DNA of 64,000 nt from positions 13,351-77,350 of IMG/VR virus record IMGVR_UViG_637000224_000001, one strand, 5' to 3'. A program made the translations under genes and the position numbers. The notes under the pieces were generated by a model. It worked only from the letters and a program-made list of their open reading frames with translations. It was not told where the DNA came from and did not search any database. Positions 37,062-57,969 of this stretch are shown piece by piece (within the stretch, counting starts at the first letter, position 1; each line of letters begins with the position of its first letter). This DNA comes from a virus (Duplodnaviria; Caudoviricetes).

Positions 37062-37445
37062 ATGGCCCTGACCCAGAAACAGCGGGACGAGAGGACGGCG
37101 CTCAAGCGGCAGAAGGCCGGGGAAGAGGAATTGCGGCTCAGGGTGCGGCCCGGAACGAAGCAGGCCCTGAGTGAGCTGATGGAGTGGGCAGGCATCGAGG
37201 AGCAGGGAGAGGCGCTGACCCTGATGATTCACCACCTGCATGCGCTGGGGCCTGGCGGCGCGCTGCCCATGCTTGAGGTTCCGCGCCACGAAATCACAGT
37301 GTCGAATATCGTGGCGTTGGAGTTTCACCGCAAGAGCATGCTGATGATTCATCAGGATCCGGGGTGTGAAATCATTTCGCCAGCAATGGAAGCAAATCGC
37401 CTTTGTAGCGATGCACATTCAATGCTCCATGATGGCGAACATTGA
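37062..37445 (+). CDS. Hypothetical phage protein
   Basis: Paralog at 63457 (EELR.RVRPG, PRHEI). Confidence 0.7.
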   Translation: MALTQKQRDERTALKRQKAGEEELRLRVRPGTKQALSELMEWAGIEEQGEALTLMIHHLHALGPGGALPMLEVPRHEITVSNIVALEFHRKSMLMIHQDPGCEIISPAMEANRLCSDAHSMLHDGEH

Positions 37446-37665
37446 TACAGCCCGCTGGTACCATAAATATCCGTCCTTTCTCATTAAAGAGACCACCTTC
37501 GATCAGAGATCTAAGCGTCTTTTCATCAATGCCCTCAAATGATTTGTTATCGGCCTCAAGTGTGAAGCTAAAGAGCCCTTTCTTCGGCCCTCTCTGAAAC
37601 TTGTATGGATGGCAGACCAAGCCAGCCTCGTTGAGGCCGATCACATCCTCAATGACTTCAAGCAT
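37372..37665 (-). CDS. Antisense cargo, hypothetical protein
   Basis: 97 aa, preceded by leftward promoter-like element at 37699-37727. Confidence 0.6.
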   Translation of the reverse strand: MLEVIEDVIGLNEAGLVCHPYKFQRGPKKGLFSFTLEADNKSFEGIDEKTLRSLIEGGLFNEKGRIFMVPAGCINVRHHGALNVHRYKGDLLPLLAK

Positions 37666-37972
37666 TTTTAAATCCTCAAGACCCCATGCCGGTCACCCGT
37701 AATACCCCATCCCCAGCCAATTTGCCACCGCCGGATACGGAGACGGCGAATGCAATGGAGATTGACATCAAGTTCGAAGAAAGCGTCATCACAAAGTTGT
37801 TGATATCTGGCGCCCTCTACCTAGATCCCGTAACGTTTTACTTTAAGGCTTCAATCGTCTTAAATGGACGACTGAGTATGCCTCGGCTAAAAGTTGCAGT
37901 CACCGGCCAAGATGACGGCTAGCACGCGCGACAAAAGAGCTGAGTGCTTGCTATAAATCAGCCAAATCTATA

Positions 37973-38755
37973 TCAACGTTTAAAGTCTGGTATGACGAGC
38001 CTATAATGCCGATCATGCATTTTAGCCTTATAAAGTTCGACGCGCGCATTCCACTTCTTATTGAATGCCTTTACAGCATTTTTAAGCAACTTAAGATGAG
38101 CATCAGATATATTCACCCCTGCAATGACACTTTTTAGAATTCTAGGCTCAAATTCTTGAGCACTAGCACCGTTAACAAAATCAATTACGCGCTCTTCCTC
38201 TTCATAACTCCACTCCGTACTTTTTGCCATGAATATCTTTTCTACTTCGTCCTCCATACGGTCAGACCACATATTAACTGTAGGTCTTTCAGTACTATAC
38301 CGTACAGGAAAAGAGACCAGATGAGAGTCATCTCTAGAACTTTTATCACGCGGAAGCCAATCTTGCTGAAAAAATTCTACAACGAACCCCGTATGATGCT
38401 TAGCATAGTGGGCCCACATCAACACATGCCAAGGAGACCTCGACAATGAAAGAACGCCCACATTTCTCATTGATTTAGCTTGAAAGGTTCCATCTTTAAA
38501 TGCGGACTCAATCCGATTCAGCCCCTCCTGTTTTCTCTTGATTTTATCTGCGGGACTACCCGATCCATCTGCAAACCTAAATAGATCAGGACGACTCTTG
38601 ATCGGATCCCGATTTGTCACGTAGCAGGGATTACAATCGAAAGGGTCGTTGAAAGCAGATGGCGCTGAAAACTTTATTTTATTTTCAGTTAATATTTTCA
38701 AAACATTCAACTCTTCGTCGAATGCTACATACTTATATAAATATTTACCTGACAC
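37973..38755 (-). CDS. DUF2971-family protein (cargo)
   Basis: LYKY, FNDPFD, LSLS, LMWAHYAKHHTG, VRY, KSTEWSYEEEER. Confidence 0.85.
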   Translation of the reverse strand: MSGKYLYKYVAFDEELNVLKILTENKIKFSAPSAFNDPFDCNPCYVTNRDPIKSRPDLFRFADGSGSPADKIKRKQEGLNRIESAFKDGTFQAKSMRNVGVLSLSRSPWHVLMWAHYAKHHTGFVVEFFQQDWLPRDKSSRDDSHLVSFPVRYSTERPTVNMWSDRMEDEVEKIFMAKSTEWSYEEEERVIDFVNGASAQEFEPRILKSVIAGVNISDAHLKLLKNAVKAFNKKWNARVELYKAKMHDRHYRLVIPDFKR

Positions 38756-38851
38756 GCTCCAGCCTCCTGACGTTGATCTCCTGATTTAAACGTACATCCA
38801 GTCAAATTGCCACTATCCGATTCGACTTGTGGCGCAAACTTGGAATTCGAT

Positions 38852-39973
38852 ATGAGCCAGCTCCACCAGATACTGGTAGGCGACTGCATCGACATGATGC
38901 GCACGCTGCCAGATGAAAGCGTGCATACGTGCGTGACCAGTCCGCCCTACTACGGTCTGCGTGACTACGGCGTCGAGGGCCAGATCGGCCTGGAGGAAAC
39001 CCCTGCCGAGTTCATCGCTCGGTTGGTCGACGTGTTCCGCGAAGTGCGCAGGGTGCTACGCGCTGACGGCACGATCTGGGTGAACATGGGAGACAGCTAC
39101 GCCGGCAGCTGGGGCTCCCAAGGCAGGCCCCAAGGCGATGGCCAGATGTCCGGGCGTAGCGTTACGTCTGCTCGGCAGATCAATGAGCACCCCAGCTTCA
39201 AATCCGGTACCGGTGTACGCGGACGCGAGATGAGCATGAAGCCCAAGGATTTAATGGGCATGCCCTGGCGCCTGGCATTCGCCCTGCAGAACGACGGCTG
39301 GTATCTGCGGCAGGACATCATCTGGAACAAACCGAACCCGATGCCTGAGAGCGTGCGGGACCGGTGCACCAAGTCGCATGAATACATCTTCCTGCTGAGC
39401 AAATCGAAGAAGTACTACTTCGACCAGACGGCCATTCTCGAACCTTGTTCCCCGAACACCCATGCCCGTCTGTCTCAGGACGTTCAAGCGCAGATCGGCA
39501 GCGAGCGCGCCAACGGCGGAGCTAAGAGCAACGGCAACATGAAGGCGACTACGCGGAAGTCAAACGGTGTGGGCTGGGGTCACGGCACAGACGCCGACGA
39601 CCGCCAGCGCGGTAGGGTCAAAGACAACGAGTCAATGAACTCAGCCTTGGCGATCATGCCAACCGAGCGGAACAAGCGCAGCGTTTGGACTGTGGCCACA
39701 CACAGCTTCAAGGGCGCCCACTTCGCCACCTTCCCGCCCGACCTGATCAGGCCCTGCATCCTTGCCGGTGCGCCGCGCGGTGGCGTGGTCCTGGACCCAT
39801 TCGGCGGTGCCGGTACCACATCGCTGGTTTCGATGCAGGAAGGACGACGCTCAGTCATCTGCGAGCTGAACCCAGAATATGCGGCACTCGCCCGCGCCCG
39901 GATAGACGCAGCTTGGCTGGATGGCGCTGCTCAGATGGACGTGTTTCGGGACTCGGTACACGGGGCGGGATAG
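38852..39973 (+). CDS. DNA methyltransferase, N4-C/N6-A (beta class)
   Basis: Start ATG 38852; SPPYY, HFATFP, VLDPFGGAGTT. Confidence 0.93.
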   Translation: MSQLHQILVGDCIDMMRTLPDESVHTCVTSPPYYGLRDYGVEGQIGLEETPAEFIARLVDVFREVRRVLRADGTIWVNMGDSYAGSWGSQGRPQGDGQMSGRSVTSARQINEHPSFKSGTGVRGREMSMKPKDLMGMPWRLAFALQNDGWYLRQDIIWNKPNPMPESVRDRCTKSHEYIFLLSKSKKYYFDQTAILEPCSPNTHARLSQDVQAQIGSERANGGAKSNGNMKATTRKSNGVGWGHGTDADDRQRGRVKDNESMNSALAIMPTERNKRSVWTVATHSFKGAHFATFPPDLIRPCILAGAPRGGVVLDPFGGAGTTSLVSMQEGRRSVICELNPEYAALARARIDAAWLDGAAQMDVFRDSVHGAG

Positions 39974-39980
39974 CTGATTG

Positions 39981-40628
39981 TCACCATTTTCCATCACGGT
40001 TTCTAACCATTGCGAAAGATTTGAATGCCGGTCTTACTTTATAGCACTCGATCTTAGATAAGTTGTGGCCCAAAATATCTTGTATTTCCTTGCGACTGAT
40101 ATCTGAAGCAAAACCAACTACGACTTCAGCAAGGCAGATGCTGTCGCTAAATGACTCAAAATAAAGACCTGACTCTGGATCGGGTTTTCCTAGAGAGCCG
40201 AACAAACGAACTTCCTCTTCGTATCTCCAGTGGTCAAATTTCGTGAGAAATGCCTCCTCGACCCTCTGGTCTACTTTCTCTGAGTCCCAAGGACGATCTG
40301 GTCTGAAGTCGAGACGCTCGGAGACATAGTTTACAGCTGTAACGAACTTGTCGGGAATATCAAATCCCAAGCATATTCCGTTGTGCCTACCTGCGTAGTG
40401 TGCCCACTGAACCGGGCTGCTCATTGCTCGACTAAAACAGATCATGCCAGCTTCGGCAGCCGTAGACTTTTTGAATGACCCCATGCGTTTACGAAGTTCA
40501 CGATTATCTAGAGAGTGACAGAACAGCTCAAAGGGATCATTTACCGAGTCAAAAGTGGAAACTTTCAACCTGTTTTTTTCGAGAGCTTCGAGTCCGTATT
40601 TTTTGTTGAGGAAGTGATAGCAACGCAT
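39981..40628 (-). CDS. DUF2971-family protein (cargo)
   Basis: YHF, NDPFE, ICFS, QWAHYAGRHNGICLGF, VNY, KFDHWRYEEEVR. Confidence 0.85.
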   Translation of the reverse strand: MRCYHFLNKKYGLEALEKNRLKVSTFDSVNDPFELFCHSLDNRELRKRMGSFKKSTAAEAGMICFSRAMSSPVQWAHYAGRHNGICLGFDIPDKFVTAVNYVSERLDFRPDRPWDSEKVDQRVEEAFLTKFDHWRYEEEVRLFGSLGKPDPESGLYFESFSDSICLAEVVVGFASDISRKEIQDILGHNLSKIECYKVRPAFKSFAMVRNRDGKW

Positions 40629-40668
40629 TTCAAACTCTCCTGACTAAAAATATTGTCCTTTACAGACT

Positions 40669-40707
40669 AATACCCCACTTCAACGGCTCACGCCACCCCG
40701 GCGAGGA
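40669..40707 (+). repeat. Leader repeat family A (copies 40669, 41572, 55245)
   Basis: AATACCCCACTTCAACGGCTCACGCCACCCCGGCGAGGA; 38/39 identical at 55245-55283; degenerate at 41572-41609. Confidence 0.9.
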
Positions 40708-40713
40708 ATCTCC

Positions 40714-41571
40714 ATGTCTCCCTACAAAATGTCCGGGACGACGGTTGTCAGCTTTTCCGGTGGCCGGACCAGCGCTTACATGCTGCGCCAGGTGCTGGAC
40801 GCCAACGATGATCTGGACGATCTGATCGTCACGTTCGCCAACACCGGCAAGGAACACCCCGCCACCCTCGACTTTGTGAACGAGTGCTCACGGCGCTGGC
40901 AGGTGCCCATTATCTGGCTGGAGTATCGCGACGATGATCAAGGCTTCGCCATTGTCACCTACGAAACCGCCAGCCGCGACGGCGAGCCGTTCGAGGCTCT
41001 TATCCGCAAGCGCAGCTATCTGCCCAACCCGGTCACACGGTTCTGCACCATTGACCTCAAAATCAGGGTGATCCACAAATATCTGCGGATGGTTGGATGC
41101 TCCACTGAGGAAACCCCGGTCGACATGATGACCGGCATCAGGGCAGACGAGCCACGGCGCGTGGCGAAGATCCGGCACCGCAAGACCACGACAGAGAGCA
41201 AGCACGCGACGATGGTGATGCCGCTCGCAGATGCCGGTGTCGGAGTGCAGCAGATCGGAGAGTTCTGGAAGGCTCAGCCGTTTGATCTGGAACTACCGAC
41301 GATCAATGGCCGCACCCTGGAAGGCAACTGCGACCTGTGCTTTCTCAAAGGTGCAAAGCAGGTCTACTCAATCATCGCCAGTGACCGGAGCAAGGCCGAC
41401 TGGTGGGCTCGGATGGAGCGCACCGCGACCCAGAGTAGCGCCGCCACAACTGACGGCGCGCTGTTCCGTTTCGACCGACCGAGCTATCAGCAGATGCTCG
41501 ATTACTCGGACACCCAGTTCGATATGTTCGCCGACCACGACGAAGCCATAGCCTGCTTCTGCGGCGACTGA
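40714..41571 (+). CDS. PAPS-reductase family protein
   Basis: SFSGGRTS, FANTGKE, RFCT, GIRADE, GNCDLCFLK, C-terminal CFC. Confidence 0.88.
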   Translation: MSPYKMSGTTVVSFSGGRTSAYMLRQVLDANDDLDDLIVTFANTGKEHPATLDFVNECSRRWQVPIIWLEYRDDDQGFAIVTYETASRDGEPFEALIRKRSYLPNPVTRFCTIDLKIRVIHKYLRMVGCSTEETPVDMMTGIRADEPRRVAKIRHRKTTTESKHATMVMPLADAGVGVQQIGEFWKAQPFDLELPTINGRTLEGNCDLCFLKGAKQVYSIIASDRSKADWWARMERTATQSSAATTDGALFRFDRPSYQQMLDYSDTQFDMFADHDEAIACFCGD

Positions 41572-41615
41572 CCCCAAACTTCAACAACTTCACGCCGCCT
41601 CGGCGAGGATGAACT

Positions 41616-43670
41616 ATGTCCGCTCAACAGAAGAAACACCCCTTCGATTTTAAAACCCAGTACGGCCTTGGCTTCAATCCGCAAGACGATGAGATCGTTG
41701 TGGACTTCTTCTGCGGTGGCGGCGGCGCCGGTACCGGGCTGGAAATGGGCCTTGGGCGCACCGTCAGCGTAGCCAAGAATCACAGCCCGGCAGCGATCAG
41801 CATGCACACCGTGAATCACCCAGGTGCGAAGCACTTCACGACAGATGTATTCGACGGCGATCCGGATACCGAATGCGGAGGCAAGGCCGTGGGCTGGTTC
41901 CACATGAGCCCGGATTGCACCCACCACAGCCAGGCCGCTGGCGGGCAGCCGCGCAAGCGTGAGATCCGCAACCTGTCTTGGATCGGCTTGAAGTGGGGTG
42001 GCAAGAAGAGACCCCGCGTCATCAGCCTGGAGAACGTAAAGCAGATCCTGCAATGGGGGCCGCTGGTGGCAAAGCGTTGCAAGTCGACCGGGCGGGTCGT
42101 GAAGCTGGGCGGCGGCATTGCCGCACCTGGTGAGGTTGTGCCGGTCGATCAGCAGTTTCTGGTGCCAGACCCTGGGCGGCGCGGCCAGACGTGGGCGGTG
42201 TTCGTGGCCGAGTTGGAGCGCCTGGGCTATGTGGTCGAGTGGCGCGTGATCCGAGCGTGCGATTTCGGTGCGCCCACCAGCCGGGAACGCCTGTTCATGA
42301 TTGCCCGCTGCGACGAACAGCCGATCGTGTGGCCAGAGCCGACCCACGCCAAGCGCCCGGCCAAAGGCCAGAAGCCTTGGAGGACAGCCGCCGAGTGCAT
42401 AGACTTCACCGAGTTGGGCAAAAGCATATTCGGACGCAAGAAAGACCTGGCGCCGGCCACCTTGCGGCGAGTGGCCAAGGGCATGAAGAAGTTCGTCATC
42501 GACAACCCGGCCCCGTTCATTGTCCCGATTGCGAACTGGTCGGGCGAGACGGTGCAATCGGCCAAAGAGCCGCTGCGCACGGTGACTTCATATCCAAAAG
42601 GCGGCGCTTTCTCGGTCGTCAGCCCAGTCATTGCGCCGGCGACCCACCAGTGCAGCGATCGCATCAACGATCCGTTGGAGCCATTGCCGACAGTTACTTG
42701 CGCCAACCGTGGCGAGCTGACGCTGATCAGCCCTACCCTGATCCAGTCTGGCTACGGCGAGCGCGAAGGCCAACAGCCCCGTGTGCCAGGAATCGATCAG
42801 CCGCTGGGCACCGTTGTTGCTGGCGGCGTCAAACACGCGCTTGCCGCTGCGCACTTGGTGAAGTTCCGGTTTGACGATTCGGGCAAAGCGCTTGATGAGC
42901 CTCTGCCAACTATCACCAGCGGCGGCAACTACCAGCGGCCTGCTGGTGCAGCCCACGCGATGGGAGTGTCTACGGTGTTCATGGCTCAGATGAACGGTGG
43001 CTTCAACACGACGCACGCCAAGGGCGTCGACGAGCCAATGACGACGGTCACCAACACCGGAAGCCAGCAGCAACTGGTGGCCGCAAGCCTGGTGCACCTA
43101 CGCGGCAACTGTAATGCGCGGGACCCCGCCGATCCGCTGCACACCATTAGCGCCGGCGGCCAGCACCACGGCATGGTGACAGCGTTCATGGAGCGGCAGT
43201 TCGGTGCCAGCGTCGGTCAGTCGCTTGAAGAGCCTGCGCCCACCGTCACGGCCGGAGGCGGAGGTAAAAGCTCTGTCGTATCGCTCAGACTCTCCCCAGA
43301 GCATGAGGAAGGCGCACTGCGCGTCGCCGCGTTCCTGATCAGCTATTACGGGACCGAGAACGTCAGCAGCGCGGGCGAACCAGCGCCCACGATCACGACC
43401 AAGGATCGCTTGGCGCTGGTCACCGTCATGGTCAAGGGCACTCCCTACGTGATCGTCGACATCTGCCTGCGGATGCTCAAGCCGTCAGAGCTGTACAAGG
43501 CTCAGGGCTTCCCCGCCGACTACGTCATCACCCACGGCGCCGACGGCAAACCGTTCACTAAAACTCAGCAGGTTCACATGTGCGGCAACAGCGTGAGCCC
43601 GCCGCCGATGGCAGCCTTGGCCAAGGCTAATGACCCTTGGCGGGCAACCATGGCAGCTTTAGCAGCCTGA
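41616..43670 (+). CDS. C5 cytosine DNA methyltransferase with repeat-containing variable region
   Basis: DFFCGGGG (I), SPDC (IV), ENV (VI), RERLF (VIII), QGF and GNSV (IX/X). Confidence 0.93.
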   Translation: MSAQQKKHPFDFKTQYGLGFNPQDDEIVVDFFCGGGGAGTGLEMGLGRTVSVAKNHSPAAISMHTVNHPGAKHFTTDVFDGDPDTECGGKAVGWFHMSPDCTHHSQAAGGQPRKREIRNLSWIGLKWGGKKRPRVISLENVKQILQWGPLVAKRCKSTGRVVKLGGGIAAPGEVVPVDQQFLVPDPGRRGQTWAVFVAELERLGYVVEWRVIRACDFGAPTSRERLFMIARCDEQPIVWPEPTHAKRPAKGQKPWRTAAECIDFTELGKSIFGRKKDLAPATLRRVAKGMKKFVIDNPAPFIVPIANWSGETVQSAKEPLRTVTSYPKGGAFSVVSPVIAPATHQCSDRINDPLEPLPTVTCANRGELTLISPTLIQSGYGEREGQQPRVPGIDQPLGTVVAGGVKHALAAAHLVKFRFDDSGKALDEPLPTITSGGNYQRPAGAAHAMGVSTVFMAQMNGGFNTTHAKGVDEPMTTVTNTGSQQQLVAASLVHLRGNCNARDPADPLHTISAGGQHHGMVTAFMERQFGASVGQSLEEPAPTVTAGGGGKSSVVSLRLSPEHEEGALRVAAFLISYYGTENVSSAGEPAPTITTKDRLALVTVMVKGTPYVIVDICLRMLKPSELYKAQGFPADYVITHGADGKPFTKTQQVHMCGNSVSPPPMAALAKANDPWRATMAALAA

Positions 43671-43676
43671 GATACT

Positions 43677-43928
43677 TTACTCAGGTGTGGCGTATAGATG
43701 GCTAACACACGTACCGCAAACAGATCGCCCAAGCACGGCCGCTTTCGCTCTAGCGGTCTCCTCGGCAAGACAGCTCAGATTAATGGTCGATGTTTCATCA
43801 AATTTGGCTTTATTGCAGATCGAAGATTTTCGCGTAGAACACTCTCTTGGATCTGTACTGGTGAGCGTACCTTCGAATATATGGTGCTCGTTAGTTTCAT
43901 TTCGCTTCCGTATTGAGTAAGTGATCAT
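43677..43928 (-). CDS. Antisense cargo, small Cys-containing protein
   Basis: 83 aa, CGTC, tail-to-tail with the MTase. Confidence 0.6.
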   Translation of the reverse strand: MITYSIRKRNETNEHHIFEGTLTSTDPRECSTRKSSICNKAKFDETSTINLSCLAEETARAKAAVLGRSVCGTCVSHLYATPE

Positions 43929-44041
43929 TCCATAACCTCCACTAATAATGGCATTGCGCCAGTCTCGATAATGCCACTACCAAACGGTTATTCATACCCC
44001 TCCCAAACAACCTGAGCCCCTAGTGAGGCAAGGACAAACTC

Positions 44042-44356
44042 ATGCCCGAAGAAACGTTGATAGGTCCCGTCGAAGTCACCCGCGACGAGGACGGCTACTG
44101 GTATCACCCAGGCGTTCCGGATTTCGATGAAGACCATGCGGCCTACAAAGCCTGGCTTGATGCTCAGCAACTGAAGGTGGTCGGCTGGCACATGGACTCC
44201 GACCTTGAGTCGCCCCCCTACTGGGAAGAAGGCGCAGCCAACTGCCTCGGCTGGGAACCTGAAACACCCACTGCACCCGGCTGGTTTCTTCTGGGCATCT
44301 TCGATACGGACGACGGCCCATACGTGCAGTGGGCGCAGCGGCTGGTGACGCCATGA
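44042..44356 (+). CDS. Hypothetical phage protein
   Basis: AGGA RBS; VTRDEDGYWYHP. Confidence 0.7.
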   Translation: MPEETLIGPVEVTRDEDGYWYHPGVPDFDEDHAAYKAWLDAQQLKVVGWHMDSDLESPPYWEEGAANCLGWEPETPTAPGWFLLGIFDTDDGPYVQWAQRLVTP

Positions 44357-44997: not shown

Positions 44998-44999
44998 GC

Positions 45000-45212
45000 C
45001 TACCGCACTATGAATATCAGCTCTCCCCTGTCAGTCATCGCCATGCCGTACTTGAGCCGGCCCAGGTACTGCTGGTGCATTGAGTAGACCCGGTCATCGA
45101 TGATTCTGAAAATCATCGTTGTCTCAGACCAGATATTGCCGTCCACCGCCCGCCTGCCGAGCCTGGCATTGCGCGGGCCGTAAACCTCATCCGCCGTTGT
45201 GGTGCATTCCAT
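45000..45212 (-). CDS. Small conserved antisense protein
   Basis: Paralog at 58307. Confidence 0.7.
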   Translation of the reverse strand: MECTTTADEVYGPRNARLGRRAVDGNIWSETTMIFRIIDDRVYSMHQQYLGRLKYGMAMTDRGELIFIVR

Positions 45213-45330
45213 GACCTCTCCTTGGTGGTGTACCAGCTCCTGCTGGCTGCGTGGACCATAGCAGTGATCAGAGGCAGCTGCCTGATATCCCCTTCCCTAC
45301 AGAGCCTGCCGGCGATCGGCGGGCGGAGAT

Positions 45331-45798: not shown

Positions 45799-45878
45799 CC
45801 CCTTCCGCCGCCCAGCGCGGCCCACACTCATTTCAATATCTAACAATGGCGGTCCTGAGCGGGCTGCAGGAGCTACTT

Positions 45879-46094: not shown

Positions 46095-47129
46095 ATGGGA
46101 AGGAAGCCGATTAATCCCGACAGCGTCACACGCCTCAGAAAGCGTAAACAGCGCAGCGGGGTCGTCTATTACTACTATGACATCGGAGGCTCACCGCGAA
46201 AGGAAATCCCACTCGGCTCGGACTATGGCATGGCGATCGTCGAGTACGCCAAGCTGGAGAAGAGCCGAACATCCTCGGCTCTCGTACAGCAGGTGCTGAC
46301 CTTCGCGTATGTCGCGCAGAAGTACATGATCGAGGTCGTGCCGACCAAAAGCCCGGCAACGCAGAAAGACAACGCCAGGGAGCTGAAGCAGCTTCTGAAG
46401 TTCTTCGACGATCCGCCAGCACCGCTGGAAGCGATCGAACCTCAACACGTCGTGCAGTACCTGCGCCAGCGCGGGAAGACTGCCCCTGTACGAGCAAACC
46501 GGGAGAAGGCGCTACTGAGTGCTATCTGGAATTTTGCGAGGAGCGCCGGCTACACAGCGCTGGCCAACCCATGCGCGGGCGTAAAGGGTCACAAGGAAGT
46601 TGGGCGAGACCATTACATCGAGGACGAGATGTTTGCTCTGGTTTACGGCCATGCGGAGCAACCTCTACGCGATGCTCTGGATCTGTTCTACCTGACCGGA
46701 CAGCGGATTGCGGACACGCTGAAAATGGACGAGCGCGATATACGCGACGGCCGGCTATGGGTTCAGCAAGGTAAGACGAATGCAAAAAGGAGGATTGAAA
46801 TTACAGGTGAGCTGAAGGTGGTCATTGACCGCATTATGACCAGAAAGGAAGGACACAGGATCCGCACCTCCAGGCTGATCGTCATGGATAACGGCCAGCC
46901 CATGACGAGCAGTATGTTGCGGGGAAGATTTGACGCGGCACGCGAGGCGGCCGGTGTGGAGAAGGGAGAATTTCAGATGCGAGACCTGCGAGCGAAAGCC
47001 GGCACGGATAAAGCTGAATCGAGCGGCGATATCCTTCAAGCCCGCGATCAGCTCGGGCACACCACCGTGGTGATGACCGAGAACTACATCCGCAAAAGGA
47101 TCGGGAAAAAGGTCACTCCAACCAAGTGA
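46095..47129 (+). CDS. int: Tyrosine integrase 1
   Basis: TGQR, QGKT, RDLR, LGH, ENY catalytic elements; next to att. Confidence 0.95.
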   Translation: MGRKPINPDSVTRLRKRKQRSGVVYYYYDIGGSPRKEIPLGSDYGMAIVEYAKLEKSRTSSALVQQVLTFAYVAQKYMIEVVPTKSPATQKDNARELKQLLKFFDDPPAPLEAIEPQHVVQYLRQRGKTAPVRANREKALLSAIWNFARSAGYTALANPCAGVKGHKEVGRDHYIEDEMFALVYGHAEQPLRDALDLFYLTGQRIADTLKMDERDIRDGRLWVQQGKTNAKRRIEITGELKVVIDRIMTRKEGHRIRTSRLIVMDNGQPMTSSMLRGRFDAAREAAGVEKGEFQMRDLRAKAGTDKAESSGDILQARDQLGHTTVVMTENYIRKRIGKKVTPTK

Positions 47130-47244
47130 ATTCTGCACCGCAATTATTTTTACCCCCTTGAATTTAAAGGGCTGCAAGGCAGGTAATTAACGTGTCATGC
47201 GGTGCAGGATTATTGCTAACCATCTGTTTATAAAGGATGAATTC

Positions 47245-50609: not shown

Positions 50610-50612
50610 TAT

Positions 50613-51578
50613 TCAGCGTATCACGGGATAATAGCTGCCTTTTTTATCAGGCCCTTTAAAAAAGCGAGTTTTGACGTTAAACATCAAATCCACAGTATCG
50701 ATTTCAGACGGCTCAATTACTCGATTAGCGACAATTTTAAAAGCGTGAGGGACGTTCTCTGCTTGTATGCTGGTAACTCTTGTTACTCCGGGTATCAGTG
50801 ACAAGAAATTTTGAATCTCCGAAGGCTTTTCATAAGTATCCTTTACATATATAAGATACCCAATAGACTCCGTGACATTGACTATATCGTTTGAATTATT
50901 AATTGGAGACCCAAATCCCCTAACCTTGAGATCACTGATGAATGATTCAATGTAATCCAGCTTCTTAATCAGAAAGGTCTGAGCATCATCGGGCTCTACC
51001 GACTCTCTTAACACCCTGGTTTTTGTGACTCTGTAGACCGGATTATCAGGCTCTCCATTCAGCATGGCCGCACTTATAGCAGCTTCTAGCTTAGGGGCAA
51101 GGTCAACCGCACCGAACATGTCATTTTGGAAGAATACTGTTCTCTCATCTGATATATCAAACGGCAGCCTAGTACCTGCCTCAGCTAAAACCACTATAGG
51201 TAGCCCTACACAATGCCGCACCGCTAGCTCATACATGACATTCGGGTTTAGCTCACTGAGATTAGCAATCACCAACTCGTCATATACAACGTGCTCTATA
51301 ACCTGACGCGTTATTGAGCCGGGGCTGGCAATCTCATGAGCTACAAATGTCTGAAAGCCTAGCTTATCTAGAACCGGTCGCATTACAGCGCTGATCAGGC
51401 CGTCAGCGGCTCGCCGTGTCGTTGATGTGTCCGAACCTATGGGGGTGACAATGAAACATCTTTTAGGAGCGCTGTCCTTCAGAGCTTCAACCTCTTCCTT
51501 CGCTGCCTGTGTTGCATTCTGTCTAGCCACGCGACATCTCCTAGCCCAAGAGCTTTCCCTATTCGCGGTAGAAAACAC
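50613..51578 (-). CDS. Nucleoside 2-deoxyribosyltransferase/hydrolase-like cargo protein
   Basis: CFIVTPI, VIANLSELNPNVMYELAVRH, LPFDI; start uncertain. Confidence 0.75.
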   Translation of the reverse strand: MFSTANRESSWARRCRVARQNATQAAKEEVEALKDSAPKRCFIVTPIGSDTSTTRRAADGLISAVMRPVLDKLGFQTFVAHEIASPGSITRQVIEHVVYDELVIANLSELNPNVMYELAVRHCVGLPIVVLAEAGTRLPFDISDERTVFFQNDMFGAVDLAPKLEAAISAAMLNGEPDNPVYRVTKTRVLRESVEPDDAQTFLIKKLDYIESFISDLKVRGFGSPINNSNDIVNVTESIGYLIYVKDTYEKPSEIQNFLSLIPGVTRVTSIQAENVPHAFKIVANRVIEPSEIDTVDLMFNVKTRFFKGPDKKGSYYPVIR

Positions 51579-51751
51579 GAAAATCGAGCGTATTACCAGA
51601 GCGAATTTGAAGATTACGTTTGGACATTGCGTACCTGTTCTAGGGCAATGTCTAACAAAAGTGGAGCTTTGCTACAGCCAAGAGCCGATTAACGCCGCAG
51701 CTACCCTCAAATACATCCGCCAATTGAAATCAAGTCCCCGGAGAAATATTC

Positions 51752-52099
51752 ATGTCGAAGCCTACAGACACCAGTGAATTCCTCAACGAACTGAATGGCG
51801 GGGCTTTCGCCAGCCAGATCGGCCACGCCCTTTCCGAAGTTGCCGCCGGTGTCGTCGACCACGGCAAAGCCGGGAAGGTGGTCATCACCCTGGACTTCTC
51901 CCAGATCGGCGAGTCCAGCCAGGTGAAGATCAAACACAAGCTCGATTACAAGGTGCCGACCAAGCGAGGCACCCGCAGCGAGAACACCAGCCTCGACACG
52001 CCAATGCACGTTGGCTCCGGCGGCAACATCACGCTATTCGCCGAAAAGCACGACCAGCTGTTCACGCGTGACGATGCGCCAATCCCACGCCGCGACTGA
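51752..52099 (+). CDS. Conserved phage protein (partner of DUF2303)
   Basis: FLNELNGGAFASQIGHALSEVA. Confidence 0.75.
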   Translation: MSKPTDTSEFLNELNGGAFASQIGHALSEVAAGVVDHGKAGKVVITLDFSQIGESSQVKIKHKLDYKVPTKRGTRSENTSLDTPMHVGSGGNITLFAEKHDQLFTRDDAPIPRRD

Positions 52100-52128
52100 T
52101 CACCACCCCACCAAGCGAGACTTGAAAT

Positions 52129-52941
52129 ATGTCCCTCACGAAAGAAGCTATTCAACTGATCATCGATGACGCGCTGATCGCCCAAGGCAAAGAGCTGGGC
52201 ACCGTTACGCCCACCATCGTGCTGCCCGAAGGCGCGAAGGTCGTGAACCTTGAGCAATTCGGCGCAGGCCGCAGTCGCTTCCGTGGCACGTTCTCCACCA
52301 ACTCCCTGGTGGACTTCGCCAAGTACGTGTCCGACCGCGCAGTCGCAGACGCAAAAGGCTTCATCAATCAGGACGACATGACCTGCTCGGTGCTGTTCAA
52401 CCTGGGCAACGAGGAAGTGCCAGGCCACGCAGACGACCGCGCCGTGCTGAAACTCAAGCCCACCGCCGCCTATCAGGCCGTGCAGGCAATCAGTGGCCGG
52501 GCCATGTCGCAGAAGGATATGAGTGACTGGATTGAAGACTGGCACAGCACCCTGTCGGCGGTCGGTGATGAGCTGCAGAACATCCCGCTGGCCAAAGCCA
52601 TCGCCGCCGTGCGCACGATCACGGTCAAGGCATCGTCGGAAAGCGATCACACCGTCAGCGAGACGCGCGCCAGCCGCAGCGCAATGGATGCCATTGAGGC
52701 GACCAGCAAAGAAACGCTGCCAACGTCGCCGATCTTCTCGGCCATTCCATTTGAAGGCCTGCAGACGCGCGAAATCATCCTGCGAATCTCAGTCATCACG
52801 AGCGGCGCACAGCCGGTGCTGAAGCTGCGCTGGGTTGGCGAGGACGTGCAGCGCGAAGAGATCGCTCAAGAGTTCAAGTCGGTGCTCGAAGCGAAGGTGG
52901 GCGATGCCGCTCAGCTGGCGCTGGGTAGCTTCTCAGCCTGA
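52129..52941 (+). CDS. DUF2303 / YfdQ family protein
   Basis: RSRFRGTFSTNSLVDF, GHADDRAVL, MSQKDMSDWIEDW. Confidence 0.82.
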   Translation: MSLTKEAIQLIIDDALIAQGKELGTVTPTIVLPEGAKVVNLEQFGAGRSRFRGTFSTNSLVDFAKYVSDRAVADAKGFINQDDMTCSVLFNLGNEEVPGHADDRAVLKLKPTAAYQAVQAISGRAMSQKDMSDWIEDWHSTLSAVGDELQNIPLAKAIAAVRTITVKASSESDHTVSETRASRSAMDAIEATSKETLPTSPIFSAIPFEGLQTREIILRISVITSGAQPVLKLRWVGEDVQREEIAQEFKSVLEAKVGDAAQLALGSFSA

Positions 52942-53045
52942 TGCATAAGGTTCCGCGCCACGAAATCACGGTTTCACCGGCTGTGGCGCGGAATTTGGAG
53001 CGGGCGTTTCAGCGAGAATATCTTCGAATCAGTCTCGAAGGCTAA

Positions 53046-53636
53046 TCACTTCTTCGAGCCGACGGCGAGAGCAAGCAGTAATGCCGCCCCGTTATCGGAA
53101 TCGCTAAAGTCTCCGGCCCCTTTACCAGTCATTGTGATTTCCCCACGACCAGGCATTGCATCAATGAGCGAACAGAAAAGATCAATGATCGAATCCAGCA
53201 GTTCTGGAAGGTCGTTCTGCTCAATGTTATGCACGTAATTTTCGTCTCCGAAAACCGCCAGCCTATCGTGATGTGCTATCAACTTGTTCCGAAATCCCTT
53301 AATTCCCAGATCCCGAACCCTATCCTCAATGTCGATACAATCCTGTAACAGTTCGTCGCTGAAGTGGTCGCTGTATTTGGTCTTTAGGTGAGCAAAGGAA
53401 AAGTTCTCCCGATTCATAGATTCGGGAGGATCGAACATTGCGCAGAGCCGGGTAACCACGCTCACAAAGACACACCTCCTAATAACGGACAATGTATCCG
53501 GAAATGTATCGTTTGCTACTGCTACCGAACTTTCATCACAAAACATCTGCTCGTACAAAACAGCCTCTCGCCTGATTTCTGTTGCGAATGACAGGAACAA
53601 TGCGATATCCGTAGCGGCGTTTCGAATGTCGAACAT
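53046..53636 (-). CDS. HEPN-like (AbiU2-type) cargo protein
   Basis: LCAMFD...NFSF and RNKLIAH (Rx4-6H). Confidence 0.75.
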   Translation of the reverse strand: MFDIRNAATDIALFLSFATEIRREAVLYEQMFCDESSVAVANDTFPDTLSVIRRCVFVSVVTRLCAMFDPPESMNRENFSFAHLKTKYSDHFSDELLQDCIDIEDRVRDLGIKGFRNKLIAHHDRLAVFGDENYVHNIEQNDLPELLDSIIDLFCSLIDAMPGRGEITMTGKGAGDFSDSDNGAALLLALAVGSKK

Positions 53637-53741
53637 GACTACTCCTTTGATCCGGCTCCATGCCGGTCATCATCTATAGCTCACCCCCAACCAATTTGCC
53701 ACCACCAGACACGGAGGGCGGCGCACGCATGGAGAAACACC

Positions 53742-54350
53742 ATGAGCCAGTTCTACCTGCAGGACAGCCGAAGCTACGTTGGCGACGGCCTGACGTTCTG
53801 GGCGCTGGGCGGCGGTTATACGACCAACTTGGACAAAGCTGAGCTGTTCACCGCAGAGCAGGCAACCAAACACCGCGACACCGATATCCCGTGGCCGAAA
53901 GCCTATATCGACGAGCGCGCGCATCTGGGCGTCGATCATCAGTACATCAGCAAGACCGACTCGGCAGCACAGCCGAGTGAGGGATGCCAGTGCGTTTTGC
54001 AGATACAGCAGCAATGGAACGGCAACGACATTTTGTTTGCCAAGTGGCCCATCAGCGGCACTGACCGGCTTGAGCGCGCGCACCGGGTGACCCTCGAAGC
54101 GGCTATCGCTATCGGCGACGATGAGCTGACCATCTGGCCGCTGGACTACATCGTCGCGCGCGCCCGGCGCCTGGTGCATCGGCAAGATGTAGACCTCAAG
54201 CAGGCTCTGCGCGGCACCGGCATCACGCCGCCAAAGCCACACCGCATCCGCAAGCAGATATTCAACTGTCAGGGCTGCGGACGCTTCATCGCAGTCAGCG
54301 AATGCTACTTGTCCGATTACCAAAATTGCGGCGCGGACAACCACCCTTAA
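53742..54350 (+). CDS. Hypothetical phage protein
   Basis: GGAG RBS; FYLQDSRSYVGDGLTFW, CQGCG. Confidence 0.7.
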   Translation: MSQFYLQDSRSYVGDGLTFWALGGGYTTNLDKAELFTAEQATKHRDTDIPWPKAYIDERAHLGVDHQYISKTDSAAQPSEGCQCVLQIQQQWNGNDILFAKWPISGTDRLERAHRVTLEAAIAIGDDELTIWPLDYIVARARRLVHRQDVDLKQALRGTGITPPKPHRIRKQIFNCQGCGRFIAVSECYLSDYQNCGADNHP

Positions 54351-54426
54351 CACCCACCCTTACCTATTGCGCTGAACACCACGCCAGGCGGGCGGCGGCC
54401 TGAAATAGCCAAATCCCAAGACTGTT

Positions 54427-55206
54427 TTACTTCACGCGCGTCACATATTTAGCAGCTTCCGGGCAGTGAATTACTAAAGGCTGGGCATCTTCCTCTGGGT
54501 CTTTAAACCAAAGGAATCGGTATTCGCACTGGCTTGCATATTTATCCGGAGGCTTCACAAAGCCTATAGGGCCTGGCATCGGTTGCATTCCGGTTGTAAA
54601 TCGCTCCTTATAAATTATGCTCCGGTGCCCAGCACGCAAGCTGCCTAGCTGAACGCAAAGACACCTAGTAACAGCATTGAAAAATCCCTCTACATCTTCG
54701 ATCTTTACGCAGTAGTTACCAAAGGTATTTTCCAAATCGTCTGATTCAAAGCCTATTGTTGTGCACAGCACGTAGGCATGACGTAGAACAGCAGTAGCTA
54801 ATTTTACGTTTAATGAGGTCTGCTTAACGTGAGGGGCGATATAAATACCTAACCTCGCTGCCATGCTTACAAACTCGGGATCATCCCCGTCACCAGTTAT
54901 AGTAGATCCGGTTGAATAGAAGTCATGCCCCTCGTGAGGATCACCTTGCAGCGGATCTTCATATTGCCGACACTTCTCTAGCGTGCTTATATAAATAGCG
55001 CCTTGAACAAAAGCATCGGCGAATTTTTCGTCATCAAAATAGCGATAAACTGATTGAACTCTGGAAGCAATCGATTCTGAAAAATCAACGTTACCTATCA
55101 GTTTATTTTTATTAGAAGCTTTATGTTTCACTCCTGCCTTTTCAACATGCTTCCGACCCGATAATGCCTTGGCTTTTGTGTTCCACCATTGCCCCTTGCG
55201 TCCCAT
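54427..55206 (-). CDS. Cargo protein, divergent DUF2971-like
   Basis: Start re-called at ATG 55206 (GGAGGT RBS); VYRY, EDP, VLCT, IIY, FVKP..KYASQCEYRF. Confidence 0.65.
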   Translation of the reverse strand: MGRKGQWWNTKAKALSGRKHVEKAGVKHKASNKNKLIGNVDFSESIASRVQSVYRYFDDEKFADAFVQGAIYISTLEKCRQYEDPLQGDPHEGHDFYSTGSTITGDGDDPEFVSMAARLGIYIAPHVKQTSLNVKLATAVLRHAYVLCTTIGFESDDLENTFGNYCVKIEDVEGFFNAVTRCLCVQLGSLRAGHRSIIYKERFTTGMQPMPGPIGFVKPPDKYASQCEYRFLWFKDPEEDAQPLVIHCPEAAKYVTRVK

Positions 55207-55289
55207 CTGTACCTCCTTTTCGGCCAAATACCGGGAAGCACACCAATACCCCACTTCAACGACTCACGCCACCCCGGCGAGGATGAACT

Positions 55290-57422
55290 ATGTCCGCTCA
55301 CCAGAAGAAACACCCCTTCGATTTTAAAACCCAGTACAGCCTTGGCTTCAATCCGCAAGACGATGAGATCGTTGTGGACTTCTTCTGCGGTGGCGGCGGC
55401 GCCGGTACCGGGCTGGAGATGGGCCTTGGGCGCACCGTCAGCGTGGCCAAGAATCACAGCCCGGCAGCGATCAGCATGCACACCGTGAATCACCCGGGTG
55501 CGAAGCACTTCACGACCGATGTATTCGACGGCGATCCGGATACCGAATGCGGAGGCAAGGCCGTGGGCTGGTTCCACATGAGCCCGGATTGCACCCACCA
55601 CAGCCAGGCCGCTGGCGGGCAGCCACGCAAGCGCGAGATCCGCAACCTGTCGTGGATCGGCTTGAAGTGGGCAGGCAAGAAGAAACCCCGCGTCATCAGC
55701 CTGGAGAACGTAAAGCAGATCCTGCAATGGGGCCCGCTGGTGGCCAAGCGTTGCAAGTCGACCGGGCGGGTCGTGAAGCTGGGCGGCGGCATTGCTGCAC
55801 CTGGTGAAGTTGTGCCAGTCGATCAGCAGTTTCTGGTGCCAGACCCTGCCAGGCGCGGCCAGACGTGGGCGGTGTTCGTGGCCGAACTGGAGCGCCTGGG
55901 CTATGCCGTCGAGTGGCGTGTGATCCGAGCGTGCGACTTCGGCGCGCCTACCAGCCGGGAACGCCTGTTCATGATTGCCCGCTGCGACGGACAGCCGATC
56001 GTGTGGCCAGAGCCGACCCACGCCAAGCGCCCCGCCAAAGGCCAGAAGCCTTGGAGGACAGCCGCCGAGTGCATCGACTTCACCGACATGGGCAAAAGCA
56101 TATTCGGACGCAAGAAAGACCTGGCGCCGGCCACCCTGCGCCGGGTCGCCAAGGGCATGAAGAAGTTCGTCATCGACAACCCGGCCCCCTTCATTGTCCC
56201 GATCGCGAACTGGTCGGGCGAGACCGTGCAATCGGCCAACGAGCCGCTGCGCACGGTGACTTCATATCCCAAAGGCGGCGCTTTCTCGGTCGTCAGCCCA
56301 GTCATTGCGCCAGCGACCCACCAAGGCAGCGATCGCATCAACGATCCACTTGAGCCGCTGCCAACGGTGACGTGCGCCAACCGGGGCGAACTGACGCTGA
56401 TCAGCCCGACCCTGATCCAGTCTGGCTACGGTGAGCGCGAAGGCCAACAGCCTCGCGTGCCGGGTATCGATCAGCCATTAGGGACGGTCGTTGCCGGTGG
56501 CGTTAAGCATGCGCTCACAAGCTCGATTCTGGTGGGCGCTGGCGGGCCAGTTTATTCAGGAAAGCCAGTAGCGGCAGATCAGCCGGTGGGCACGTTGATG
56601 ACTCAGAATCACAGAGCAGTGGCCACTGCATTCATGGCTCAGATGAACGGTGGCTTCAACACCACCCACGCCAAAGGCGCTGACGAGCCCATGACGACGA
56701 TCACCAATACTGGCAGCCAGCAGCAGCTGGTGACCGCGACTCTGATCACCAACACAACGGGCCACGGACCGACGAGCCTGGAAAGTCCGGTACCGACCCT
56801 GACAACTGGTCAGCACCACGCTCTTGTGGCCGCAAACCTGGTGCACCTGCGCGGCAACTGTGACGCGCTGGACACCGCCGATCCGCTGCACACCATCAGC
56901 GCGGGCGGCCAGCACCATGGACTGGTCACCGCGTTCATGGAAAGGCAGTTCGGTGCCAGCGTCGGTCAGCCTCTGGATGAGCCAGCACCTACCGTTACAG
57001 CAGGTGGCGGCGGTAAAAGCTCTGTCGTATCTCTCAAGCTCTCCCCTGAGCATGAGGAAGGTGCACTGCGCGTCGCCGCATTCTTGATCAGTTACTACGG
57101 GACCGAGAACGTCAGCGGTGCAGGTGAACCGGCACCAACGATCACGACCAAGGATCGCTTGGCGCTGGTCACCGTCATGGTCAAGGGCACGCCCTACGTG
57201 ATCGTCGACATCTGCCTGCGGATGCTCAAGCCGTCCGAGCTGTACAAGGCTCAGGGCTTCCCCGCTGACTACGTCATCACCCACGGCGCAGACGGCAAGC
57301 CATTCACCAAAACCCAGCAGGTGCACATGTGCGGCAACAGCGTCAGTCCTCCGCCGATGGCAGCGCTCGCTCGGGCCAATGATCCATGGCGCGTGTCTGA
57401 ACACCAGGCCGCCGCGGCGTAA
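55290..57422 (+). CDS. C5 cytosine DNA methyltransferase, paralog 2
   Basis: Same motifs as 41616; swapped repeat units in variable region. Confidence 0.93.
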   Translation: MSAHQKKHPFDFKTQYSLGFNPQDDEIVVDFFCGGGGAGTGLEMGLGRTVSVAKNHSPAAISMHTVNHPGAKHFTTDVFDGDPDTECGGKAVGWFHMSPDCTHHSQAAGGQPRKREIRNLSWIGLKWAGKKKPRVISLENVKQILQWGPLVAKRCKSTGRVVKLGGGIAAPGEVVPVDQQFLVPDPARRGQTWAVFVAELERLGYAVEWRVIRACDFGAPTSRERLFMIARCDGQPIVWPEPTHAKRPAKGQKPWRTAAECIDFTDMGKSIFGRKKDLAPATLRRVAKGMKKFVIDNPAPFIVPIANWSGETVQSANEPLRTVTSYPKGGAFSVVSPVIAPATHQGSDRINDPLEPLPTVTCANRGELTLISPTLIQSGYGEREGQQPRVPGIDQPLGTVVAGGVKHALTSSILVGAGGPVYSGKPVAADQPVGTLMTQNHRAVATAFMAQMNGGFNTTHAKGADEPMTTITNTGSQQQLVTATLITNTTGHGPTSLESPVPTLTTGQHHALVAANLVHLRGNCDALDTADPLHTISAGGQHHGLVTAFMERQFGASVGQPLDEPAPTVTAGGGGKSSVVSLKLSPEHEEGALRVAAFLISYYGTENVSGAGEPAPTITTKDRLALVTVMVKGTPYVIVDICLRMLKPSELYKAQGFPADYVITHGADGKPFTKTQQVHMCGNSVSPPPMAALARANDPWRVSEHQAAAA

Positions 57423-57477
57423 CAGGCAATAAGCGGATAAACAGCTAAGTACGTTGCAGGCTTATCCCGGGCTGGTT

Positions 57478-57969
57478 TTATTCTTCGCCAGTTGTTTCCG
57501 AAGAGCTTATGCCATACATCTTAAATATCTCGTATTCCGCAATAACGGGATGCAATGACGGGAACCTCAGTAACCACTGGCCGAACATAATCGTGAATAT
57601 CTTGTGAAGTTCAATAGACTCGGATGCAACGCGCATACAAATCTCTTTTATATGCTCGCGGCCTCCTTGCGCAGACCAGTCGGTTTCAACCAAGCGATGA
57701 ACGACCATGTGCCGCTCCTCAATATAGCGAAGAATTCTATCTTCGAGCCCGCTAACTTCTGCCGCGCCAGAAATCTCTTTCAACAGTGCCTTCACCGGTT
57801 GTTTGAATGCCCTACGCGGACTGATGGAAACAACGTCCTCAATCGTAACTACGTCAGCTTGCTTTATTGCGTGGCGTGCGGCCAAGACGAACATCTTTTC
57901 GAACGCCTGCGAACTTAATACCGCCACACCAACAGCCTCACACAATGTTTCATCTAGGATCGCTTCCAC
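57478..57969 (-). CDS. HEPN-like cargo protein
   Basis: G.AVLSSQAFE N-terminal helix and ERHMVVH (Rx4H). Confidence 0.6.
   Translation of the reverse strand: MEAILDETLCEAVGVAVLSSQAFEKMFVLAARHAIKQADVVTIEDVVSISPRRAFKQPVKALLKEISGAAEVSGLEDRILRYIEERHMVVHRLVETDWSAQGGREHIKEICMRVASESIELHKIFTIMFGQWLLRFPSLHPVIAEYEIFKMYGISSSETTGEE

Follow-up and report, generated by a model that had tools for sequence, protein, structure and literature searches.

The window, a 64,000-nucleotide stretch of viral DNA, consists of tandem lambda-like Pseudomonas prophages in which backwards-facing accessory genes (hereafter cargo) lie amid rightward genes. Given the position of the CI-like repressor, the layout identifies the plus-strand genes from 27900..28586 to int as the early-left (PL-type) operon. 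The only recombinases seen in the window were tyrosine integrases of the prophages (46095-47129 and 59402-60436), and the ATG at 38852 is the most likely start of the N6 methylase. The features discussed below are as follows.

27900..28586, plus strand: CI-like repressor (phrog_4 transcriptional repressor, E 1e-57)
37372..37665, minus strand: cargo of 97 aa, GC 0.47, from the ORF list, with a GAGGA Shine-Dalgarno sequence before its ATG
37682..37768, minus strand: module copy 1, homologous family D13
37973..38755, minus strand: cargo of 260 aa, DUF2971 (PF11185, E 5e-6) / PADLOC PDC-S31 (E 5e-45)
38784..38812, minus strand: TGGCAA/TTAAAT pair, a site of the original prediction, with a remnant of a right module only
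39981..40628, minus strand: cargo of 215 aa, DUF2971 / PDC-S31 (Pfam, PADLOC)
40663..40718, minus strand: module copy 2, homologous family D14
41572..41615, plus strand: type II right module alone, with CGGCGT instead of TGGCGT, without TAT and without antisense cargo
41616..43670, plus strand: C5 DNA methyltransferase (Pfam PF00145)
53046..53636, minus strand: cargo of 196 aa, HEPN AbiU2 (Pfam PF18734, E 7e-11)
53652..53741, minus strand: module copy 3, complete, homologue of copy 1 (D13)
54427..55206, minus strand: cargo of 259 aa, matching phrog_13198
55219..55289, minus strand: module copy 4, homologue of copy 2 (D14)
57478..57969, minus strand: cargo of 163 aa with no family match, whose leader is not a module copy
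58007..58035, minus strand: TGGAAT/TAGTGA, the weak sixth pair of the original prediction

The original prediction held that conserved minus-strand promoter hexamers, fixed in the phage backbone, drive interchangeable antisense genes in the manner of an integron promoter. The observation behind it was partly confirmed and its interpretation partly supported. All six hexamer pairs were present at the minus-strand coordinates given for them, with spacers of 17 nt; each '-10' lay ahead of a leftward start codon, at a measured distance of 28-38 nt and with a Shine-Dalgarno sequence in every case; and the leftward ORFs of the window were AT-rich as claimed (GC 0.41-0.48, compared with ~0.60 for the backbone). 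The sites are not separate, however, because those at 37.7 and 53.7 kb, and those at 40.7 and 55.2 kb, are homologous repeat copies. Sequence comparison indicates that these four are real copies, complete or truncated, of one modular intergenic element. Along the minus strand, its parts are G.TGGC, 17 nt, TGGGGTAT, 6-9 nt, a 5-bp GC hairpin (CCGGC-N5-GCCGG), AAGGAG and the ATG of the cargo, the whole unit spanning ~70 nt. Copy 3 has its hairpin at 53652-53666, its -10 (TATAGA) at 53678-53673 and its -35 (TGGCAA) at 53701-53696, and its type I right module reaches the ATG at 53742. In copy 1 (-10 TATTAC, 37704-37699; -35 TGGCAA, 37727-37722), the left module is cut within the hairpin (37684-37709) and fused to a type I right module. 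Copies 2 and 4 carry type II right modules, which lead into a PAPS-reductase-like gene and reach the ATG of a C5 methylase at 55290, respectively. The left module of copy 2 is the ATACCCCA core only, with the hairpin absent (-10 TATTAG, 40672-40667; -35 TGGCGT, 40695-40690), and copy 4 has a weak hairpin (55219-55235; -10 TATTGG, 55248-55243; -35 TGGCGT, 55271-55266).

The two remaining sites do not behave as conserved elements. In relatives with homologues of the neighbouring genes, homology stops short of the hexamers at both 38.8 and 58.0 kb. The 38.8 kb leader retains only an 11-nt remnant of the type I right module (CAAATTGCCAC), and at 58.0 kb a better -10 (TATAGT), read directly from the sequence, precedes the quoted TAGTGA by 2 nt. 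The leader at 41572, offered as a control lacking the -10, indeed has no TAT, but TGGC is absent from it too; this right module directly adjoins the stop of the PAPS-reductase-like gene.

As predicted, homologous slots hold different cargo, a 97-aa ORF in one copy versus HEPN AbiU2 in the other, and DUF2971 versus a 259-aa ORF. The last had been described as DUF2971-like, but it matched nothing in Pfam or PADLOC and aligned with the DUF2971 protein at a BLASTP E value of only 0.18. The 97-aa cargo had zero matches in Pfam, PADLOC and PHROG. By family, the window cargo comprises two PDC-S31 (DUF2971) genes, one HEPN AbiU2, one TIR-like and four without a match, so that some of it appears to be defence-like. 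Downstream of the window cargo genes, no terminator was predicted, and a scan of the sequence upstream of them found no better sigma-70-like site. In some relatives, a GC hairpin lies between the convergent genes.

We used the C5 DNA methyltransferase at 41616..43670 as an anchor for collecting 80 related Pseudomonas loci, in which methylase identity is only 63-87%, and took a second sample of viral contigs chosen by an exact 22-mer of the module. The neighbour of the C5 methylase differs among the 80 loci. These loci and the window together yielded 43 module copies, and the viral contigs 123. In 36/43 and 93/123 copies, respectively (~80%), an antisense ORF, preceded by a Shine-Dalgarno sequence, starts near the hairpin, at a distance of 11-29 nt from it in the genome set. 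The leaders, aligned across relatives, bear out the prediction of a conserved leader with variable antisense cargo: 50 ORFs fell into 32 clusters in one set, and 93 ORFs from the viral contigs into 60 unrelated clusters. Annotation is mostly absent, with any Pfam match found for 1/41 and ~7/86 of the relatives' cargo genes. We observed directly the geometry of the module, its spread and the diversity of its cargo.

Similarity between loci is confined to a leader of ~60-90 nt, and conservation is higher in the module than in the genes that flank it. Spacing within it varies by indels (gaps of 9, 10, 11 and 12 nt) that are not multiples of three, indicating that it is non-coding, and one hairpin copy carries the compensatory double change CCGAC/GTCGG. 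On the minus strand, G.TGGC and TGGGGTAT alone carry high information, making the motif bipartite. The predicted conservation of the hexamer pair held for its spacing but not for the hexamers as drawn. The 17-nt distance between TGGC and the TAT hexamer occurs in 38/41 genome-locus copies and 115/123 viral copies and is kept across right-hand partners of differing spacer (TTGCCA, ACGCCA, CTGCCA and GCGCCA on the plus strand), whereas TGGC and TGGGGTAT form the conserved core. The strongest conservation is at TGGGG immediately upstream of TAT, which a -10 hexamer does not predict and which speaks against a promoter.

Nor is the slot fixed in the backbone. The module stands before at least five rightward gene families, or before none, and the early-left operon of locus L009 has three full copies and one partial copy, the maximum per operon. 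Judged by this distribution, the module is portable, and it occurs also without cargo.

Promoter likeness is poor. Against TTGACA/TATAAT, the six pairs match at 2-3/6 plus 2-4/6 positions (5-7/12 in total), which is at chance level; on each strand of the window, equally weak pairs turn up every 52-311 nt. The -35 hexamers TGGCAA and TGGCGT score 3/6 and 2/6, and the consensus over 43 copies is G.TGGC rather than TTG. The -10 of the module copies is TATNNN, with the A at -11 present; at -7, every listed copy has C, G or A. A lenient sigma-70 scan passed none of the six window pairs and no module copy, and it found no plus-strand promoter-like site at the module. The pattern TGGC[AG][AT]-N17-T[AT][AT][AT], which was defined post hoc, has six minus-strand matches and one plus-strand match, where ~2.6 are expected on both strands. 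The 17-nt spacer of the window copies does fall within the sigma-70 range of 16-18 bp. A sigma-54 promoter (TGGCAC-N5-TTGCW, GG-N10-GC) was rejected, as the TTTG/GTTG after TGGC is one position out of register and the GC at -12 is absent. The principle of promoter-driven cargo has a parallel in relatives: at the same methylase slot, an alternative leader with a canonical CGGACA-N17-TATAGT/TATATT stands before singletons as well as several clusters of cargo, and its copy in locus L006 passes the sigma-70 scan.

Taken together, the module looks like a portable promoter-plus-leader, and our verdict from these comparisons is that the antisense AT-rich genes are probably morons with a common promoter/leader-like module. 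Our joint best explanation, to which we give a probability of about 0.5, is that they are morons in the early-left operon and that the ~70-nt portable unit serves the cargo as an expression adaptor of its own. AT-rich accessory genes, several of them defence-like, would have been inserted among the early-left genes of lambda-like Pseudomonas prophages. A leftward promoter, weak or factor-assisted, would use TGGCNN as its -35 and TATNNN as its -10. Because the hairpin begins 6-9 nt after the -10, the usual start ~7 nt downstream would coincide with the first hairpin bases, so that transcription may begin at the hairpin or just before it and yield an mRNA with a stabilizing 5'-terminal stem-loop. 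A strong ribosome-binding site would be supplied within the adaptor. The cargo ORFs may be exchanged by ordinary homologous recombination between the module and conserved rightward genes, and not by site-specific capture. It is by inference that we assign promoter activity and a start site to the module, and lysogen expression and any role in defence to the cargo.

One alternative, which we consider rather unlikely, is that the module serves the rightward operon as an intercistronic hairpin with a translation-initiation or processing leader and doubles as a linker for mosaic recombination, with the cargo transcribed from elsewhere (leftward read-through or weak promoters inside neighbouring genes). 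At least five rightward gene families have their Shine-Dalgarno sequences and start codons in the right-hand parts, which favours this alternative, as does the poor match of TGGC...TAT to a promoter. Intact modules without an antisense ORF (7/43 genome-set and 30/123 viral copies), several of them directly after a rightward stop (L009 at 9934, L011, L024 and L046), fit it as well and speak against the adaptor reading. However, ~80% of copies adjoin an antisense start, AAGGAG belongs to the conserved block, and many copies retain the part from the Shine-Dalgarno sequence to TGGC even though the rightward start is lost. On the plus strand, RNAalifold gave no covariation-supported structure (-5.1 kcal/mol, covariation term +0.13), and a promoter-like site is likewise absent there. 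The end points of homology favour the adaptor reading in both samples. Thirteen genome-locus copies with cargo and without a rightward start are cut 1-7 nt past GCCA, and TGGC is kept in 13/13; among 25 comparable viral copies, 17 end points fall 3-13 nt past the -35 hexamer and none inside it. Loss of TGGC from cargo-less genome copies (kept in 1/4, versus 13/13) was not replicated in the viral contigs (8/10 versus 20/25). Clustering of end points past GCCA is equally compatible with a recombination hotspot, as are the CCGGCGAGGATC direct repeats that flank an inserted cargo cassette in L011, and both can be counted for the linker.

It is less probable still that TGGC...TGGGGTAT is the binding site of a phage or host regulator and not a promoter core, for example an activator site, or an operator or 'stoperator' through which the lysogen silences or insulates its early-left operon. 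The motif, which may resemble the stoperators of mycobacteriophages, is asymmetric and intergenic, with 46/48 pattern matches on the operon's own strand and up to three full copies plus a partial one per operon, as in L009; it is kept with or without cargo; and its conserved bases differ from those critical for sigma-70. An operator, however, would not need a tight geometry relative to the hairpin, the Shine-Dalgarno sequence and the antisense ATG, and we found no candidate binding protein. Finally, the hexamers could be meaningless and the leader similarity a product of recent common ancestry and hitch-hiking neutral sequence, since pairs this weak are common by chance, the viral contigs were picked by an exact 22-mer and copies related by descent are not independent counts, but this is very unlikely for a module that is conserved block-wise with fixed spacing, exceeds the genes on either side in conservation and accompanies dozens of unrelated genes at loci with such divergent methylases.

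The preferred reading, morons with an expression adaptor, can be set beside known systems. The moron concept comes from the lambdoid phages HK97 and HK022 (Juhala et al. 2000, ref. 39 in PMC10884400). Morons are extra genes of deviant composition between conserved phage genes; they are presumed to be expressed by the prophage and in many cases provide exclusion or defence. A classical moron is complete in itself, with promoter, gene and terminator, and its sequences are its own. Here, too, AT-rich cargo is inserted among phage genes and varies among relatives; by contrast, scores of unrelated genes carry a common module, lie antisense to the operon and have no predicted terminator. The tab gene of Pseudomonas phage JBD26 likewise is a minus-strand defence gene inside a plus-strand operon, prophage-expressed from its own promoter, but it is one family at one locus between terminase genes, paired with anti-Tab (PMC10884400). 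The genes described here occupy early-left operon slots, are highly diverse and have no identified partner gene. The exclusion gene sieB of phages lambda and P22 is another early-left gene that a control region of its own keeps active in the lysogen; it represents one family instead of a slot with changing content. The integron comparison (Pc/attC) captures the recurring expression signal and the interchangeable ORFs, but does not extend to mechanism: the 3' junctions of 35 cargo ORFs have no common sequence that could be an attC-like boundary and often overlap the stop of the convergent gene, each ORF has its own module, no IntI was identified alongside the prophage integrases, and the exchange looks like homologous or mosaic recombination. 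In prophage and satellite defence hotspots of the P2/P4 type, cargo that varies and is partly defence-like occupies a fixed position between conserved flanks, as in the slot upstream of the C5 methylase; the difference is that the constant part here, beyond conserved flanks, is a ~70-nt portable non-coding module that moves between positions.

A more specific form of the adaptor reading, which we hold only tentatively, is a dedicated mobile expression adaptor with a non-canonical bipartite promoter (TGGC-N19-GGGGTAT) that uses a host or phage factor, a stabilizing 5'-terminal hairpin and a consensus ribosome-binding site, shuttled by recombination among Pseudomonas lambdoid prophages. If this is true, the adaptor would mark a large and almost wholly uncharacterized pool of small lysogen-expressed proteins, of at least 60 families, and would provide a sequence handle for finding new exclusion or defence genes.

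The window comes from a 77-kb IMG/VR provirus record and contains lambda-like Pseudomonas prophage material. An early-left operon on the plus strand runs from a CI-like repressor gene (27900-28586) to a tyrosine integrase gene (46095-47129), and includes genes for a YqaJ-type exonuclease, an N6/N4 methylase, a PAPS-reductase-like protein and a C5 methylase. A second element of 13 kb (47.2-60.4 kb) ends in an integrase gene (59402-60436), after which a third element starts. Eight antisense ORFs lie between the plus-strand genes, with a GC content of 0.41-0.48 versus about 0.60:

37372-37665, minus strand, 97 aa, without a family match
37973-38755, minus strand, DUF2971 / PADLOC PDC-S31
39981-40628, minus strand, DUF2971 / PADLOC PDC-S31
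43677-43928, minus strand, 83 aa, without a family match
50613-51578, minus strand, 321 aa, N-terminal TIR-like region (PADLOC TIR effector model, E 7e-10; phrog_10872, E 6e-59)
53046-53636, minus strand, HEPN AbiU2
54427-55206, minus strand, phrog_13198 only
57478-57969, minus strand, 163 aa, without a family match

The original prediction was that six leaders, at 37.7, 38.8, 40.7, 53.7, 55.2 and 58.0 kb, carry minus-strand promoter-like hexamer pairs that drive these leftward cargo genes. The observation was partly confirmed and its interpretation partly supported. All six pairs were found at the predicted positions with a spacer of 17 nt, and a leftward start codon with a Shine-Dalgarno sequence lies 28-38 nt beyond every pair. 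Their likeness to sigma-70 promoters did not hold up: the pairs match at only 2-3 of 6 plus 2-4 of 6 positions, equally weak pairs occur once per 52-311 nt per strand in the window, and none of the six passed a lenient consensus sigma-70 scan of it. Because the 37.7/53.7 and 40.7/55.2 sites are homologous repeat copies, the five stronger pairs do not amount to five independent cases. Homology with related loci starts within the N6 methylase gene, leaving out the 38.8-kb hexamers, and at 58.0 kb it starts just past the proposed -35. At this last site (58007-58035, minus strand), moving 2 nt upstream from the predicted TAGTGA gives a better -10, TATAGT, and eight consecutive T follow; the 163-aa cargo may be served by a different promoter of its own. 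The ORF at 54427-55206 had been called DUF2971-like, and similarity of its protein to DUF2971 was undetectable.

Aligning the leaders of 80 Pseudomonas loci fetched around C5 methylase homologues revealed a modular intergenic element. On the plus strand, the left module reads TGATCCGGCTCCATGCCGG TCACCCGTA ATACCCCA, that is, a 5-bp GC hairpin and then ATACCCCA. Right modules are of two types: type I contains AAATTGCCACCACCGG and continues through CACGGAGGGCGGCG, ending in a Shine-Dalgarno sequence and ATG, and type II consists of TATCAACGAATCACGCCAGCCGGCGAGGA followed by ATG and lies ahead of the C5 methylase or PAPS-reductase-like gene. The left module can also be joined to other sequence. A prophage carries up to three full copies and one partial copy (related locus L009), conservation is higher in the module than in the flanking genes on both sides, and at least five different plus-strand gene families occur downstream of right modules. 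The predicted hexamers are split between the two parts, the -10 falling within the left module and the -35 within the right one. Across 43 copies, from these loci and the window, only G.TGGC and TGGGGTAT carry high information on the minus strand, and the distance from TGGC to the TAT hexamer is 17 nt in nearly all.

An antisense ORF starts near the hairpin in 36 of the 43 copies, with AAGGAG forming part of the conserved block; the remaining seven lie directly after a plus-strand stop codon (TGA within TGATCCGG) or lack a clear neighbour. We also collected viral copies with an exact 22-mer of the left module, which matched more than 120 viral contigs at least; among the matches listed, an antisense ORF adjoins 93 of 123 copies, and the ORFs beside the module form 60 BLAST clusters. 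Scanning 86 distinct proteins of this viral set gave about 7 Pfam and about 18 PHROG matches, all of unknown function. At the C5-methylase slot, 41 of the 80 loci had antisense ORF calls; pooled with the window's own ORFs (50 ORFs in total), these form 32 clusters. The prediction that the adjacent antisense gene would vary across Pseudomonas prophages is thus borne out in both sets. No sequence is common to the 3' junctions of 35 cargo ORFs, which often overlap the stop of a convergent gene. The TIR-like ORF has no module copy in its leader.

We consider it about an even chance (roughly 0.5) that the module is a portable promoter/5'-leader unit which antisense morons share. Consistent with this, conservation is bipartite and the spacing fixed. 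The TAT block lies 6-9 nt from the hairpin, so a transcript with a normal start would begin with the hairpin, and the sigma-70 scan found no better candidate upstream of the window cargo. Where a copy has cargo but lacks a plus-strand gene start, the module breaks off shortly after GCCA, leaving TGGC intact in 13 of 13 such genome-locus copies; among the viral matches listed, 17 of 25 end points fall 3-13 nt past the hexamer and none inside it. Against a promoter, the fit to sigma-70 is poor: the putative -10 varies in its last three bases, and no copy of the 43 has T at -7. Peak conservation is at TGGGG, which a -10 element does not explain, and cargo-less intact modules exist. TGGC was kept in 1 of 4 cargo-less versus 13 of 13 cargo-bearing copies in the genome set, but in 8 of 10 versus 20 of 25 among the viral matches listed; as the apparent decay was not replicated in viral contigs, we dropped relaxed constraint as evidence. 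Sigma-54, sigma-32, AlgU and CII-type readings were rejected by eye because their register or half-sites do not fit.

The main rival explanation, which we regard as rather unlikely, would make the module an intergenic leader of the plus strand that doubles as a recombination linker, with cargo simply landing next to it. The cargo-less intact modules, some directly after plus-strand stop codons, would fit it, and the clustering of end points could come from a recombination hotspot, as could the direct repeats of CCGGCGAGGATC on both flanks of a cassette inserted in related locus L011. However, RNAalifold on the plus strand returned only a small hairpin, without covariation support. An Rfam scan of the whole window gave no family matches, and G-U versus A-C hairpin pairs, used as a strand test, gave two cases for the plus strand and one for the minus strand and do not tell the strands apart. 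The proposed integron-like arrangement is not borne out, as there is no attC, each cargo comes with a separate module copy, and exchange resembles homologous recombination.

About 17 of the 80 loci carry a different leader of 47-57 bp at the same C5-methylase slot (leftward, L006:9950-10010; likewise L011, L019, L026, L067 and others). Its minus strand reads CGGACA, 17 nt, TATAGT or TATATT, a short 5' UTR and the cargo ATG, with the -35 overlapping the methylase start codon. In L006 this leader passes the sigma-70 scan, and it is conserved across several clusters and singletons of unrelated antisense cargo; therefore, a canonical leader-promoter for interchangeable cargo exists in this phage group. 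Judged by sequence, the window module is its putative non-canonical counterpart.

Two further details concern the 37.7-kb site. In the phrog_5439 gene (37062-37445, plus strand), similarity to the family is limited to residues 1-101 of 127, and the last part of the gene shares 74 nt with the 3' end of the 97-aa antisense ORF; the gene's original end looks as if replaced by cargo insertion (37365-37445). A 78-aa plus-strand ORF (37686-37922) starts at an ATG inside the module hairpin loop and is probably not a gene; we rejected a leader peptide here because spacing indels of 1-3 nt between copies break the frame. In element 2, the equivalent position leads into a 202-aa phrog_2457 gene (53742-54350), which has no full-length counterpart in element 1.

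Twenty RNA-seq runs from five studies contain the stretch as unstranded Logan contigs. In four runs, contigs span 36.96-38.86 kb and 39.0-40.86 kb, bridging the 37.7-kb leader, and their right ends (38550-38856 and 40521-40863) scatter either side of the predicted starts. Such contigs give no start, strand or level, and therefore speak neither for nor against the promoter; nor can genes be ranked by how depth differs between cargo and methylase segments. The two lowest-coverage runs have their highest word depth (133-692) over the 3' half of the C5 methylase gene and the 83-aa ORF, only a hint of a strong transcript around 42200-43930, as depth is flat per unstranded contig.

The antisense cargo genes are morons. 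Among experimentally studied systems the nearest is the tab gene of Pseudomonas phage JBD26, which lies on the minus strand within a phage operon and has a promoter of its own (PMC10884400); here, by contrast, many unrelated genes have one portable leader in common. We found no account of the module in a limited literature collection. A cultured lambdoid phage of P. protegens, Pseudomonas phage PseuP_222 (OP626800.1), carries a full module at 53228-53335, flanked by a plus-strand gene and by a minus-strand gene annotated as hypothetical, and is a possible experimental system. If the module drives expression, unrelated accessory genes of one phage lineage would use a standard expression unit rather than each its own, which would bear on phage mosaic assembly and the spread of defence genes, and the module would be a simple sequence tag for prophage genes switched on in the lysogen. 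If it does not, these are ordinary antisense morons adjoining a conserved intergenic leader. The genes beside the module are mostly small and unannotated, and its main value is as a handle on this large pool of uncharacterised prophage genes.
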